Assembly: GCA_001778695.1 (NCBI GenBank)
Contig: MFHU01000017.1
Coordinates: 21,214 to 69,202 of the forward strand
Direction: 5' to 3'
Source of the DNA: Candidatus Giovannonibacteria bacterium RIFCSPHIGHO2_12_FULL_44_22
GTDB taxonomy: Bacteria > Patescibacteriota > Minisyncoccia > UBA11713 > 2-01-FULL-45-33
DNA: 47,989 nucleotides
Shown: positions 1 through 11,582 of the stretch, piece after piece
Layout: each line of letters starts with the position of its first letter
Numbering within the stretch: position 1 is the stretch's first letter
Program-made: the position numbers and the translations under genes
Notes under the pieces: model-generated
The model's database searches: none
Seen by the model: only the letters and a program-made list of their open reading frames with translations
Told to the model about the DNA's origin: nothing

Positions 1-171
1 GCTTTTTCTAAATGCTCGCATTGCAGCGAGATCAAACTTCCGCACGTAATTTGCACCAACTGCGGGTATTATAATGACCGGCAGGTTGTCGACGTTTTAA
101 AGAAATTAGACAAAAAAGAACGCAAGAAAAAAGAAAAAGAGCTCGCCGTGAAAGAAGAGGCGAAGGCTTAA
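1..171 (+). CDS. rpmF: 50S ribosomal protein L32, 3' part (truncated by window edge)
   Basis: Frame 1 reads AFSKCSHCSEIKLPHVICTNCGYYNDRQV..., the CxxC...PHxxCxxCGYY zinc-ribbon motif of L32, upstream of nusB-rnc. Confidence 0.9.
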   Translation, partial: AFSKCSHCSEIKLPHVICTNCGYYNDRQVVDVLKKLDKKERKKKEKELAVKEEAKA

Positions 172-7370: not shown

Positions 7371-7462
7371 TTAATTATGGTCTGGTACAAGTAAAATATA
7401 AAAAGTCCAAACGGACAGAAGCACCATTCCATTTTTATCAATTAATTATGGTCTGGTATAAG
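7371..7462 (+). repeat. 21-nt direct repeat in the 16S leader
   Basis: TTAATTATGGTCTGGTACAAG (7371-7391) and TTAATTATGGTCTGGTATAAG (7442-7462). Confidence 0.8.
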
Positions 7463-7498
7463 AAAATAAATTTTCTCTTTTGTCCCGTTCATTCATAA

Positions 7499-7538
<40 letters not shown>

Positions 7539-8456
7539 GATAAGGCATGCAAGTCAAACGGAACTTATTTTGAAGGAGTTGCGATTACATCAAGACAACG
7601 GATTCATAGGTTTAGTGGCAGACGGGGTAGTAACACGTAGGAACATCCCCCAGAGACGGGTATAACTAGCCGAAAGGTTAGCTAATCCCCGATAGTCTCG
7701 TAAGAGTAAATCACTTAGATTGGCTCTGGGAATGGCCTGCGGGATATCAGCTTGTTGGCGAGGTAATTGCTCACCAAGGCTATGACGTCTAGGGGGCGTG
7801 AGAGCGCGACCCCCACCAATGGAACTGAGACACGGTCCATACACCTACGGGTGGCTGCAGTCAAGAACATTTGTCAATGGGCGAAAGCCTGAACAAGCGA
7901 CGCCGCGTGCGGGATGAAGCTCTTCGGAGTGTAAACCGCTTTTATAGGGGAGGAACTAAAGTGACGTTACCCTATGAATAAGGCCTTGCTAACCTCGTGC
8001 CAGCAGCCGCGGTAATACGAGGAGGCCAAGCGTTATCCGGATTTATTGGGCGTAAAGGGTGTGTAGGGGGCATGGTTAGTCTCCGCTTAAATTTTCGGGC
8101 TCAACCCGGAATCCGGCGGAGAAACGGCCAAGCTAAGAGGGTGCCAGAGGCAAATGGAACTCATGGTGTAGGGGTGAAATCCGTTGATATCATGGGGAAC
8201 ACCAAAGGCGAAGGCAATTTGCTGGGGCATTCCTGACCCTGAAACACGAAAGCGTGGGGATCAAAAAGGATCGAAAAGTTCCGTTTACAAGGCGGACTGG
8301 TCCAATTGTGAAGTAATTCGCAATATAAAAACTTGGCTATATCGGGGAACATCTCGCGAAGCGAGACAATCCCGAGGGAAGTTGTGTGTTCAAATTTCTG
8401 GAAAAAGAAAAAGGCGCAGCTGTGCCGAGCCTTGGGAAATCACTGATCGATCTAAG

Positions 8457-8609
8457 TCATCGCTTGGTAGTAGACTCAAGCTTAGCGCATGCCAGAGCTG
8501 TTAGAAAACAGCCTAGTAGCAGCATCGCAAGAGTTGCGAGGGGTCCATACGCGAGGACGGGCTTACTTAGAGCGGTCAAAAGTGTTATTAGAACTCCAAT
8601 TATAACCAT
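8457..8609 (-). CDS. 50-aa hydrophobic peptide encoded antisense in the intron P6 extension (not in ORF track)
   Basis: TTGACA-N17-TATTCT promoter (8655-8627), SD GGAGGT, MVIIGVLITLLTALSKPVLAYGPLATLAMLLLGCFLTALACAKLESTTKR*, then hairpin and U-tract. Confidence 0.75.
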   Translation of the reverse strand: MVIIGVLITLLTALSKPVLAYGPLATLAMLLLGCFLTALACAKLESTTKR

Positions 8610-8854
8610 GGTTCACCTCCGATGCAAGAATACCATGATGGGATTAGAATGTCAAGAAAATTGACTCCAGAAATTTGAACATACAACCCCGTAGAGACTA
8701 TACGCCGAGCTCCTGATTAATTTCAGGATGATGATATAGTCCGAACTCTGCAGCGATGCAGAGAAGCAGATAGAAATATTCTGCTCACTCAAGAATGAAA
8801 ATCGGTGCTAATTTTTGGAAAAAGAAAGGCCACCACTATTAAGTGATGGCGTTC

Positions 8855-8934
8855 GCAAGACGAGAGATCAGATTCGAACTGACATCTAGCAGGGGGTACC
8901 CCGTCGCCTTACCGTTAGACCACTCCCGACTTGC
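8855..8934 (-). ncRNA. tRNA-like RNA encoded antisense in the intron P9 extension
   Basis: 12-bp acceptor-like stem with one mismatch, D-arm GTCT-AACGGTA-AGGC, T-arm GTCAG-TTCGAAT-CTGAT, non-canonical anticodon arm; own promoter and terminator. Confidence 0.75.
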
Positions 8935-9655
8935 ATAAAAAGATTAGCACTAAATACAGTCTATTGTCAATAGACTCCAAAAATTAGCACCGATTACAGA
9001 ATTTCTTGAGGTCCGCCGTCGCTAAAGCTATGGCGGACACAGTAACAAAATGTAGATACCCTTGTAGTCCACGCCCTAAACGTTGATGACTAGGCATCCG
9101 AAGTATCGACCCTTCGGGAGCCGCAAGCTAACGCGTTAAGTCATCCGCCTGGGAAGTACGATCGCAAGATTAAAACTCAAAGGAATAGACGGGGACTCGC
9201 ACAAGCGGTGGAGCATGTGGTTCAATTCGATGGTAAACGAAAAACCTTACCAGGGCTTGAAATGGTTTTGACATTCCAGCGAAAGCTGGACTTCTCACAA
9301 GGACAAAATCACAGGTGCTGCATGGCTGTCGTCAGTTCGTGGCTTGAGTTGTTCCCTTAAGTGGGGTAACGAACGCAACCCCTATCGTGTGTTACAAGTG
9401 TCACGCGAGACTGCCCCGCTCAGCGGGGAGGAAGGCGGGGATGACGCCAAGTCAGCATGGCCCTCTGATGCCCTGGGCTACACACGTGCTACAATGCCGG
9501 TTACAATGGGTCGCGATGCCGTAAGGCGAAGCAAATCCCATCAAAAGCCGGCCCAGTTCAGATTGAGGTCTGCAATTCGACCTCATGAAGTCGGAATCGC
9601 TAGTAATCGCAGGTCAGCTATACTGCGGTGAATACGTTCTCGAGTCTTGTACTCA

Positions 9656-10514
9656 AAATTAAAAGCGCCCGGCAGCTTATATTTCTAGGCCGTTAAAATC
9701 GGTCCCTCCGATTAAAATCGGAGCGTAGCAAACGGATAAGTCCTTGGCCGCGAGGTTGTGGACTGAAGGATCCTATTAGCAAAAAGCAGCCTTATTAGTC
9801 CCCGGCTTGAGTCGGGGAAAGGCCGCGCGACCCATTCGGTGAGTAATGGGGAAGCGCCAAGAAAAGCTTAATGAGGATGTTTGGAAAAGAAATACAAGTG
9901 ACCCGCGGGAGATCTCATAACGCCACTGGAATTATTGCGTTTTGAGAAGTCAGCTGAATCATAGTACTGTGCGTCAACTTATTTTTATGTTAAAATAGGC
10001 GCATGGGAAGGATGAAACCGACGGTTGCAAAAGAATATATTGTTGGGCTTACTGATGGAGAAGGATGTTTCTATGTAAACATATGGAAATCTTCTTTATA
10101 TCGAGCAGGGTTCGGTGTTCAAATGCATTTTCATATAAAGATGCAGGAGAAAGACAGGATGTTGCTCGAAAAAGTGCGAAATACATTAAAGTGCGGCGCA
10201 GTTTATTTTCAAAAAGAACAGCGCCGAAACCACGTTCAATGTTATCGCTATACCGTCAGTGCGCAGCGGGATATCTTCAATACGATAATTCCATTCTTTC
10301 AGCAAAATTCTTTGGAGAGCGCAACAAAGCGCAAAAGTTTTAAGATCTTTTGCCGAATTGCTAATTTGCTTCAAGCAAAAGCGCATTTAACCAAAAGAGG
10401 TTTAAAACGAATATGGAAGCTAAAAAAGCTTATGAATCAAAGAACCGTCGGGCTCGCGTAGTGCGGGAAATCCGCCCGCTACGTGGGAACGCGAAGCATT
10501 CTAACTATCGCAAT
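9656..10514 (+). mobile_element. Group II-like intron near 16S position 1398 (859 nt) carrying a LAGLIDADG ORF
   Basis: Domain V-like CGCGTAGTGCGG-GAAA-TCCGC-CC-GCTACGTG; 3' terminal AT; loop GGTGAGTA (9838-9845) complementary to the ligated exon junction TACTCA|CC. Confidence 0.8.
10003..10461 (+). CDS. Single-motif LAGLIDADG homing endonuclease
   Basis: EYIVGLTDGEGCFYV motif; later IIPFF..N.L...KRKSF.IF and HLT..GL..I..LK..MN are typical of the family. Confidence 0.93.
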   Translation: MGRMKPTVAKEYIVGLTDGEGCFYVNIWKSSLYRAGFGVQMHFHIKMQEKDRMLLEKVRNTLKCGAVYFQKEQRRNHVQCYRYTVSAQRDIFNTIIPFFQQNSLESATKRKSFKIFCRIANLLQAKAHLTKRGLKRIWKLKKLMNQRTVGLA

Positions 10515-11116: not shown

Positions 11117-11188
11117 TGCGTGTGGGAGGGATCGAACCTCCGGCCTCTGTCTTATCAGGACAGCGTTCTACCACTGAACTACACACGC
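11117..11188 (-). tRNA. tRNA-Ile(GAT)
   Basis: Cloverleaf with anticodon arm CTGTC-CTGATAA-GACAG; CCA not encoded. Confidence 0.93.
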
Positions 11189-11318
11189 GAAATTTACTAA
11201 TTTTAAGCCTAGCAATTTTTTAGACGTTTGTGAATAACTGATTAGTATTTAAAGCTAAATTATGTTAGAATACGCCTAAAGGTCAAAATATATTATTATA
11301 TAAGCGTTTTTTAATACT

Positions 11319-11501
11319 ATGCTAGCAAACAACAAACCAGAGCCAGTTGTGGCCTATTGCGTAAAGTGCCGCGAAAAAAGAGAGATGACCAACCCTCGAG
11401 AGGTTTCTATGAAAGGAAAAGGAGGTGTGGAGCGCCGCGCGATGACAGGCACTTGCGGGAAATGCGGAACAAAGATGTTTAGAATCATGGGCAAGAAATA
11501 A
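11319..11501 (+). CDS. Small zinc-ribbon protein (DUF5679-like)
   Basis: AYCVKCREKREM...GTCGKCGTKMFRI, two CxxC pairs. Confidence 0.75.
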   Translation: MLANNKPEPVVAYCVKCREKREMTNPREVSMKGKGGVERRAMTGTCGKCGTKMFRIMGKK

Positions 11502-11511
11502 ATCGTGCCCG

Positions 11512-11582
11512 GGGCCCGTAGCTTAGTGGTAGAGCATCCGGTTTGCATCCGGAAAATAGGGGTTCGATTCCCCTCGGGTCCA
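11512..11582 (+). tRNA. tRNA-Ala(TGC)
   Basis: TCCGG-TTTGCAT-CCGGA anticodon arm and G3:U70 identity pair. Confidence 0.93.

Follow-up and report, generated by a model that had tools for sequence, protein, structure and literature searches.

We analysed a stretch of 47,989 nucleotides (nt), called the window below, from the genome of Candidatus Giovannonibacteria bacterium RIFCSPHIGHO2_12_FULL_44_22 (contig MFHU01000017.1, positions 21,214 to 69,202). The genome assembly comprises 643 kb in 17 contigs and is 100% complete by marker genes. The window carries a 16S ribosomal RNA (rRNA) gene on the plus strand (7493–9687), which matches the Rfam model SSU_rRNA_bacteria at 1178.2 bits over model positions 1–1533 and hosts a group I intron of 781 nt (8272–9052, plus strand). 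On the opposite strand of the intron lies a compact unit that combines a promoter-like site, an 80-nt sequence (8855–8934) predicted to fold as a transfer RNA (tRNA) with a closed anticodon arm, and an intrinsic terminator, framed by inverted-repeat arms. Here, we describe this unit and the family of antisense cassettes to which it belongs, and weigh how it can be read.

The borders of the intron were read from the sequence. The 5' exon of the 16S gene ends in ...AAAAAGGAU / ...GGGGAUCAAAAAGGAU, with U at 8271, and the 3' exon starts with UAGAUACCC / UAGAUACCCUUGUAGUCC at 9053, directly after the last base of the intron, G at 9052. Hence, the U before the 5' splice site and the G at the 3' end of the intron are both present. 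The insertion site is presumably close to position 788 of the E. coli 16S rRNA. The match to the Rfam model Intron_gpI (RF00028) spans 8300–8763 with 42.9 bits, short of the gathering score of 50, and contains a 275-nt insert in the alignment; introns at the identical exon junction in other loci and relatives score 57–72.6 bits with this model. Between the end of the last helix of the model, the P9 hairpin (8763), and the 3' splice site (9052) lies the tRNA-like unit (8819–8976), in the 3' peripheral extension of P9. A related intron (L013) is devoid of any cassette.

The arms of the unit form a perfect inverted repeat of 20 base pairs (bp), 100% complementary, with 156 nt between them. The terminator-side arm (8800–8819) reads AATCGGTGCTAATTTTTGGA on the plus strand and is kept in the sister cassettes described below, while the promoter-side arm (8976–8995) pairs with it. 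The promoter-like site (8941–8970, minus strand) consists of the −35 hexamer TTGACA (8970–8965), an 18-nt spacer with TG at 8949–8948, and the −10 hexamer TAATCT (8946–8941), which is directly preceded by TGC. The −35 hexamer sits in the loop of a small hairpin (8958–8966 / 8968–8976). Seven bases separate the −10 hexamer from a 12-bp stem, the first base of which coincides with the expected transcription start. Downstream of the tRNA-like stem, after GAAC on the minus strand, follows the intrinsic terminator (8819–8850, minus strand), which is called by a consensus scanner: a 9-bp stem with a UAAU loop (8850–8829) leads into CUUUCUUUUU, which runs into the arm; its letters are GCCATCACT-TAAT-AGTGGTGGC, then CTTTCTTTTT. 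In the plus-strand reading, a run of A comes before the hairpin and no run of U after it, so that the hairpin should spare transcription of the pre-rRNA. Consensus signals in the region are no more frequent than in shuffled sequences (2 promoters vs. 1.1 ± 1.0, and 1 terminator vs. 0.8 ± 1.0). Thus they are not significant on their own, and their weight comes from the comparison with the sister cassettes. The minus-strand RNA from 8934 to 8822 folds at −44.2 kcal/mol (z = −3.53), and none of 200 shuffled sequences folds as well.

The candidate RNA (8855–8934, minus strand) is closed by a 12-bp acceptor-type stem, formed by GCAAGTCGGGAG (8934–8923) and CTCTCGTCTTGC (8866–8855) with one U-U mismatch. 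Searched with the Rfam tRNA model (RF00005), it yields 31.6 bits at 8859–8929 over model positions 1–71, exceeding the gathering score of 29, with E = 4.6e-4 over 2.6 kb and 3.7e-5 over 211 nt; the real tRNAs of the window score 58–75 bits. This match is missing from the listing of the run at gathering thresholds over the whole window. The alignment follows the standard 71-nt frame. The acceptor strands UCGGGAG/CUCUCGU contain the U1-U72 mismatch and a G4-U69 pair, and are followed by U8 and G9. The D-arm has a 4-bp stem, GUCU/AGGC, and the loop AACGGUA, which provides A14, A15, G18, G19, and A21, with G26 next to the arm. The variable loop is AGAU, the T-stem GUCAG/CUGAU, the T-loop UUCGAAU, and position 73 is C. 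The elbow and core of a tRNA are held together by U8-A14, R15-Y48, G18/G19 with U55/C56, G26-A44, G10-C25-G45, U13-A22-A46, and G53-C61. All positions that we checked for these contacts are present here, that is, U8, A14, A15/U48, G18 and G19, A21, G26/A44, G45, and A46 with U13-A22, as well as G53-C61.

By contrast, the anticodon arm departs from the tRNA standard. It has the normal length of 17 nt, but in a slipped register, with five base pairs, CGGGG/CCCUG, around the loop UACC. The standard register has U33, followed by ACC, but also the mismatches C28-C42 and G29-G41 and a C at position 37. A cloverleaf in this register, with its 7-nt loop, has an energy of −9.6 kcal/mol, compared to −19.0 kcal/mol for the slipped form with five pairs and a 4-nt loop. 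The arm thus fails the feature that defines a tRNA, a 5-bp stem with a 7-nt loop, U33, and a purine at position 37, and ARAGORN reports 8858–8930 (minus strand) as "tRNA-???" with a two-base "anticodon." As the anticodon feature is absent even though the Rfam threshold is passed, we do not file this RNA as a tRNA. Judged by its predicted fold, the tRNA body appears intact and the decoding end closed, so that such an RNA cannot read codons.

Among the 26 pairs of the fold, four are G-U and none is A-C, and the G-U pairs become mismatches on the plus strand of the intron. This asymmetry indicates that the fold belongs to the minus strand. A G−1:C73 pair and four further pairs between leader and trailer extend the acceptor stem to the 12 bp. 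Among the ordinary tRNAs of this genome, tRNA-Ser(tga) (G000:C16:10827-10915) has a perfectly complementary leader–trailer stem of at least 12 bp, and tRNA-Leu(caa) (G000:C4:73652-73736) has 4 extra pairs that involve its encoded CCA; the remaining 34 have fewer than 4 extra pairs. Transfer-messenger RNA was not found by ARAGORN, and the Rfam matches up to E = 10 included neither this family nor a Y-RNA-like (YrlA) one.

The original prediction, made from the letters of the DNA, had proposed an antisense tRNA-mimic gene with its own promoter and terminator in the P9 region of the intron, and its description of the parts is borne out at the coordinates given, while its interpretation is supported in part. 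The promoter letters TTGACA and TGC-TAATCT with 18 nt between the hexamers, the 12-bp stem with one U-U and a predicted start at about 8934 on its first base, the GG of the D-loop and the T-loop TTCGAAT, and the terminator hairpin with its U-tract are all there, and the location agrees with the end of P9 in the intron model. ARAGORN and Infernal/Rfam, the checks proposed with it, returned the call and the score given above, and the claim that the elbow is conserved and decoding lost agrees with the Rfam alignment and the register energies. It had also described the anticodon arm as CGGGG-TACC-CCCTG without a normal 7-nt loop; this is what we see, with the correction that the arm is not shortened but keeps its 17 nt in a slipped register.

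To place the unit in context, we compared it with similar cassettes elsewhere. Arms were collected from 400 genomes of the class (27 with any match and about ten with paired arms), from a set of one genome per species (37 stretches), and from metagenome contigs (26 loci), and a script extracted 26 unique cassettes from 69 loci. The family is defined by inverted arms AATCGRTGCTRATTTTTGGA, a promoter of the form TTGACA / TGnTAnnnT, and, directly next to the arm, a T-tract preceded by a hairpin that is specific to the cargo. The P9 cassette shows all three features and shares its frame with 24 cassettes that bear open reading frames (ORFs). These ORFs, of 38–104 amino acids and all in the same minus-strand orientation, occur in 24 of the 26 unique cassettes, and by our own rule 23 of the 24 are preceded by a Shine-Dalgarno sequence. 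By a similar rule, the pattern TTGACA-16..18-TGn-TAnnnT fits 21 of the 25 non-empty cassettes including the one considered here, or 20 of the other 24; the −10 hexamer TAATCT is also used by one other cassette. Each cassette has a terminator hairpin of its own, followed by the shared T-tract and arm. In relatives with the same intron, the sister cassettes have the same arms around unrelated interior sequences, and it is the minus strand that carries promoter, Shine-Dalgarno sequence, small ORF, and terminator. One cassette (k0) is empty, a remnant of 65 nt. An argument that the empty cassette proves the cargo dispensable for splicing was withdrawn, as k0 is not at the P9 position of this intron. 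The P9 cassette of this intron is the only one of the 26 with an RNA cargo and no ORF.

Fifteen of the 26 unique cassettes, including this one, are at the same site of the same intron. Five are 137–267 nt upstream of 16S 5' ends and antisense to the 16S gene (loci L101, L104, L106, L116, L118, L096, and L061), and six are elsewhere or have no resolved location. Among the protein cargos at the intron position, 13 of 14 are rich in hydrophobic residues (fraction 0.53–0.85) and one is not. The two related cargo ORFs k8 and k17 differ by seven synonymous and five conservative codon changes and by no indel, while the whole cassettes are 84% identical with 12 gap openings; this pattern suggests that the cargo ORFs are real. 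A Pfam search with 10 cargo proteins yielded DUF397 for one and otherwise non-significant matches, and NCBIfam gave nothing significant for 10 hydrophobic cargo proteins. The recurrence of the frame also bears on the gene-like character that had been proposed for the minus-strand unit, with signals of its own: in 23 of the 26 unique sister cassettes, this frame precedes an ORF with a Shine-Dalgarno sequence before it, and the conserved frame makes the status of a transcription unit much better supported than it could be from a single sequence.

Several further observations concern the family as a whole. The cargos of the cassettes upstream of 16S genes (the seven loci listed above) include soluble, zinc-ribbon-like, and Cys-rich proteins as well as one DUF397 protein, and locus L104 has one 16S gene with three cassettes inside it and around it. 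Outside the rRNA genes, the minus strand of G000:C9:17380-17475 (L004) carries TTGACA-17-TATAAT, about 20 nt, and a hairpin with a T-tract, together with a single arm CCAAAAATTAGCATCGGTT; it resembles half a cassette, or an empty one, in an intergenic position beside a gene. Single exact 19-nt matches to the arm were also seen in cyanobacterial contigs (Oscillatoriales, Microcoleus, Acaryochloris, and Lusitaniella; L062, L063, L075, L084, L092, and L094). These may be due to chance, as by our estimate about 17 chance matches are expected in the whole collection.

The same intron contains a second, related antisense cassette in its P5/P6 region (8381–8687, minus strand; inverted repeat I1), the ends of which are similar to those of the P9 cassette (direct repeats D2/D3). 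Its arms are at 8381–8402 and 8666–8687, and its promoter, TTGACA-17-TATTCT (8655–8627), is called by the scanner with 10 of 12 matches and TG and fits the family pattern. It further has GGAGGTG, a hydrophobic ORF of 50 amino acids (8609–8457, minus strand) without a match in Pfam or NCBIfam, and a terminator-like hairpin with a T-tract. In relatives, a short hairpin is all that occupies this site (joint 8382/8686). We considered whether the tRNA-like RNA might act in trans as antisense to the messenger RNA of this cassette and rejected this, as the duplex energy is no better than chance, with 149 of 200 shuffled sequences equal or better.

The P9 cassette recurs in independent data. A metagenome contig (L107) has the identical 196-nt cassette within 4.5 kb at 99% identity to the window; the two differ in 43 alignment columns, 40 of them in 7422–7496 and none in the cassette. 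The former interval is a stretch of about 70 nt directly upstream of the 16S 5' end, which is replaced between the two assemblies. Contigs of three runs from three studies show 0 differences over 8799–9002 or 8800–8931, and the copies of the cargo in contigs of four runs are all identical. As the copies come from an independent assembly and independent runs, the sequence is not an assembly accident. In viral contigs, scans with the D-arm/T-arm pattern and with the arm pattern both gave 0 matches.

As for the source of the cargo, none of the genome's 36 other tRNAs is a close paralogue, since global alignments reach at most 50 identical positions, and those only with long class II tRNAs and with gaps; this argues against a recent copy of a host tRNA. 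The tRNA-Ser(gga), tried as a homologue, was rejected because its 11-nt identity occupies another register of the structure. A tRNA-Gln of the class shares U1, the D-arm string GTCTAACGGTA at 11 of 11 positions, the T-loop, and a 4-nt variable loop, with an overall identity of about 55%. The tRNA-like RNA is closest in format to the compact Gln, Gly, and Ala tRNAs, and an identity of only about 55% does not point to one isotype of origin. In the whole genome, ARAGORN lists 36 ordinary tRNAs and none for Trp, Tyr, Lys(ttt), Gly(tcc), Pro(tgg), Gln(ttg), or Thr(ggt); the tRNAs not found may be unassembled, interrupted, or atypical.

We tentatively favour, at a little less than an even chance, the explanation that the P9 cassette produces a non-decoding, tRNA-derived RNA that owes its action to being mistaken for a tRNA body, as the cargo of a recurring antisense cassette. 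We prefer it because the core is complete, the anticodon arm is stably closed again at unchanged length, and the slot elsewhere drives what look like real genes. In such a scheme, the cassette would supply a sigma-70-type promoter (TTGACA-18-TGcTAATCT) and the cargo would bring its own intrinsic terminator. The primary transcript (minus strand) would be about 113 nt long, starting near 8934 at the base of the 12-bp stem and ending near 8822. It would fold into the normal L-shape of a tRNA, as all checked D, T, and core tertiary positions are present, while an anticodon arm capped by 5–6 bp and the UACC tetraloop would prevent codon reading. The elbow and acceptor stem might then be bound by a partner of tRNAs, for instance a synthetase, the CCA-adding enzyme, or a protein that processes or targets tRNAs, so that the RNA could serve as a substrate mimic or sponge. 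Moreover, like the products of the sister cassettes, the cargo RNA would be perfectly complementary to the discarded intron RNA, and its accumulation could be inversely coupled to rRNA transcription.

A number of observations weigh against this explanation. The promoter of the P9 cassette is not called by the consensus scanner, as TAATCT has three of six matches to TATAAT; the U1-U72 mismatch falls within the acceptor stem; and the 20 sequencing runs listed as containing the sequence are all of DNA, with none of RNA. Our initial view that the 12-bp stem was unique was withdrawn: 2 of the 36 ordinary tRNAs of the genome have leader–trailer extensions of at least 4 bp, and 5 extra pairs are also seen in a tRNA-Gln from another genome. 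A BLAST search with 8850–8938 in 150 genomes of the class gave one match of 25 nt (E = 0.0095) and no homologue of this form, and the D-arm pattern with at most one mismatch gave nothing in 150 genomes. A covariance model (R1), run on the 19 other genomes of the family and on 150 genomes of the class, retrieved ordinary tRNAs only, the best being tRNA-Ala, Gln, and Gly at 27–52 bits vs. 121 bits for the RNA itself. The tRNA-like cargo was found in a single lineage, in identical copies, and the cassette frame would be conserved around a dead cargo too. Finally, the proposed partner and the role as a sponge are pure inference.

The main rival is a disabled cargo: a genuine tRNA gene of Gln-, Gly-, or Ala-like format would once have occupied the cassette, and the loss of its anticodon loop would have left a relic without function, transcribed or not. 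We consider this rather doubtful, but a serious contender. The standard 71-nt frame, the normal 17-nt anticodon arm, the real tRNA-Gln, Gly, and Ala as the best matches of the covariance model, and the D-arm identical at 11 of 11 positions (GTCTAACGGTA) to a tRNA-Gln of the class, both starting with U1, all fit such a history; so does the restriction to a single lineage, as a recent accident would predict. Decay of cargo does occur, as shown by the empty, deleted cassette k0, and U1-U72 could be a second lesion. Against it, all checked stems and tertiary positions are intact except the anticodon arm and the pair 1-72, and the arm pairs again perfectly in the new register, 9.4 kcal/mol better and at 17 nt, which is unexpected for random decay; moreover, the genome has no close source tRNA. 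The 12-bp stem does not separate the expressed RNA from the relic, since 2 of the 36 ordinary tRNAs also have extended stems. The argument of the original prediction that intact signals speak against a decayed tRNA is likewise weak, as the conserved frame stays intact whatever the cargo does. Among the roles it had suggested, a decoy for anticodon nucleases is unlikely given that there is no anticodon loop to present, and a Y-RNA-like scaffold finds no counterpart in Y-RNA-like features, according to ARAGORN and to Rfam up to E = 10.

Two further explanations fare less well. The plus-strand P9 extension might matter as a structural module of the intron RNA, the likeness to tRNA and the minus-strand signals being incidental. 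Indeed, the 20-bp arms close a long helix, the plus strand from 8796 to 8999 folds at −69.1 kcal/mol (z = −7.4), and the complement of a cloverleaf folds too. We nevertheless regard this as highly improbable, as four G-U pairs of the minus-strand fold would be C-A mismatches in the intron RNA, with no case of the opposite, the T-loop, D-loop, and tertiary positions are canonical on the minus strand only, the 14 other cassettes at the same position are minus-strand protein genes of unrelated sequence, and the related intron L013 has no cassette. Alternatively, the RNA could be a working decoder with an unusual anticodon loop, with U33 followed by ACC in the standard register. The presence of U33, the normal arm length, and the several anticodons for which ARAGORN finds no tRNA in the 17-contig assembly would agree with this. 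It is barely credible, however, in view of the C28-C42 and G29-G41 mismatches, a standard register that is 9.4 kcal/mol worse, the pyrimidine at position 37, the U1-U72 mismatch, the lack of any anticodon assigned by ARAGORN, and the score of 31.6 bits vs. 58–75 bits for the real tRNAs of the window.

Going beyond the expressed non-decoding RNA that we favour, one could imagine a more general system, which we consider unlikely in this full form. Bacteria of the candidate phyla radiation (CPR) might park interchangeable mini-genes backwards in discarded pre-rRNA, in intron loops and in the 16S leader. The cargo RNAs, perfectly complementary to an RNA whose synthesis scales with growth, would be silenced during rRNA synthesis and released when rRNA synthesis stops. 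Here the slot would hold an imitation tRNA made for the purpose, its anticodon arm capped and its acceptor stem extended, as a starvation or stress decoy or a regulator for a tRNA-binding enzyme or toxin.

Some neighbours of the 16S gene in the window should also be mentioned. An ORF at 10003–10461 (plus strand) encodes a homing endonuclease of the LAGLIDADG_1 family (Pfam, 4.5e-21); it starts about 316 nt beyond the point where the Rfam 16S match ends and lies outside every rRNA match of the window. At the gathering threshold, the window gave no match to 23S rRNA. In the region 11117–11582, tRNA-Ile(gat) is encoded on the minus strand and runs against the 16S gene, tRNA-Ala(tgc) is encoded on the plus strand, and an ORF of 60 amino acids with a DUF5679 domain (11319–11501, Pfam, 1.2e-10) lies between them; this arrangement is unusual for an rRNA-linked pair.

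Pseudo-tRNAs and tRNA-like small RNAs are known from bacteria, examples being the "tRNA-Other" of Bacillus cereus and the tRNA-like domain of YrlA; such non-decoding look-alikes are rare, and few of them have known roles. The RNA described here resembles them in that the body and elbow of a tRNA are kept in a separate small RNA, the expression of which is predicted here, that does not decode. Unlike tRNA-Other and YrlA, it has an anticodon arm capped by a tetraloop, and its gene lies antisense inside an rRNA intron, so that the likeness is one of form and not a shown relation of sequence. Unlike YrlA, it also lacks the Ro-binding stem, with no Rfam match of that kind up to E = 10. Another relevant Rfam family is SpF41_sRNA (RF02435) from Streptococcus, which aligns over the whole model to 8822–8934 with 28.7 bits, compared to a gathering score of 52, and E from 0.0072 to 0.088. 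The model has an acceptor-like stem, the T-arm GGUUCGAAUCC, and an intrinsic terminator, so that the two RNAs are alike in architecture, which is not demonstrated homology. In the passages devoted to it, SpF41 is described as sporadic, located in strain-exclusive regions, and uncharacterised (PMC6064168, PMC9569102).

As for the place of insertion, the main text of Tsurumaki et al. (2024; PMC11270868) describes group I introns in the rRNA genes of CPR bacteria, or Patescibacteria, with or without LAGLIDADG genes. Like the introns presented in that text, ours is a self-splicing-type insertion at a conserved site of the 16S gene of an ultra-small bacterium, with a cargo in a peripheral loop; unlike them, the cargo is an antisense unit of promoter, gene, and terminator and not a homing endonuclease. 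The words "antisense," "tRNA," "promoter," and "opposite" do not occur in the main text of that paper, the one survey devoted to these introns. Full-text literature searches turned up neither such cassettes nor a tRNA-like gene placed inside an rRNA intron. Thus, non-decoding tRNA look-alikes are already known, while antisense mini-gene cassettes in discarded pre-rRNA were not found described. A tRNA look-alike in a dedicated expression slot would make a clean test candidate. The larger point, though, is the slot itself, a conserved backward cassette of promoter, cargo, and terminator with highly variable cargo, found in 16S introns and upstream of the 16S genes of uncultured ultra-small bacteria.

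Two other known systems are comparable with this slot. In type I toxin-antitoxin systems, the gene of a small, hydrophobic, toxic membrane peptide is repressed by an overlapping antisense RNA. Similarly, the sister cassettes encode hydrophobic peptides of 38–76 amino acids and are fully antisense to an abundant, discarded RNA; in contrast to these systems, the sister cargos match no known toxin family in Pfam or NCBIfam, and the cargo considered here is an RNA and not a peptide. With miniature inverted-repeat elements and integron-type cassettes, the family shares 20-bp terminal inverted repeats, a variable cargo, and the occupation of several kinds of sites (intron P9, upstream of 16S genes, and elsewhere), unlike them having no identified transposase, recombination site, or target-site duplication; from their distribution, the cassettes would seem to be mobile. 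If they are expressed, the cassette genes may be regulated through antisense pairing with the pre-rRNA, and rRNA introns would carry host-relevant or selfish genes besides homing endonucleases.

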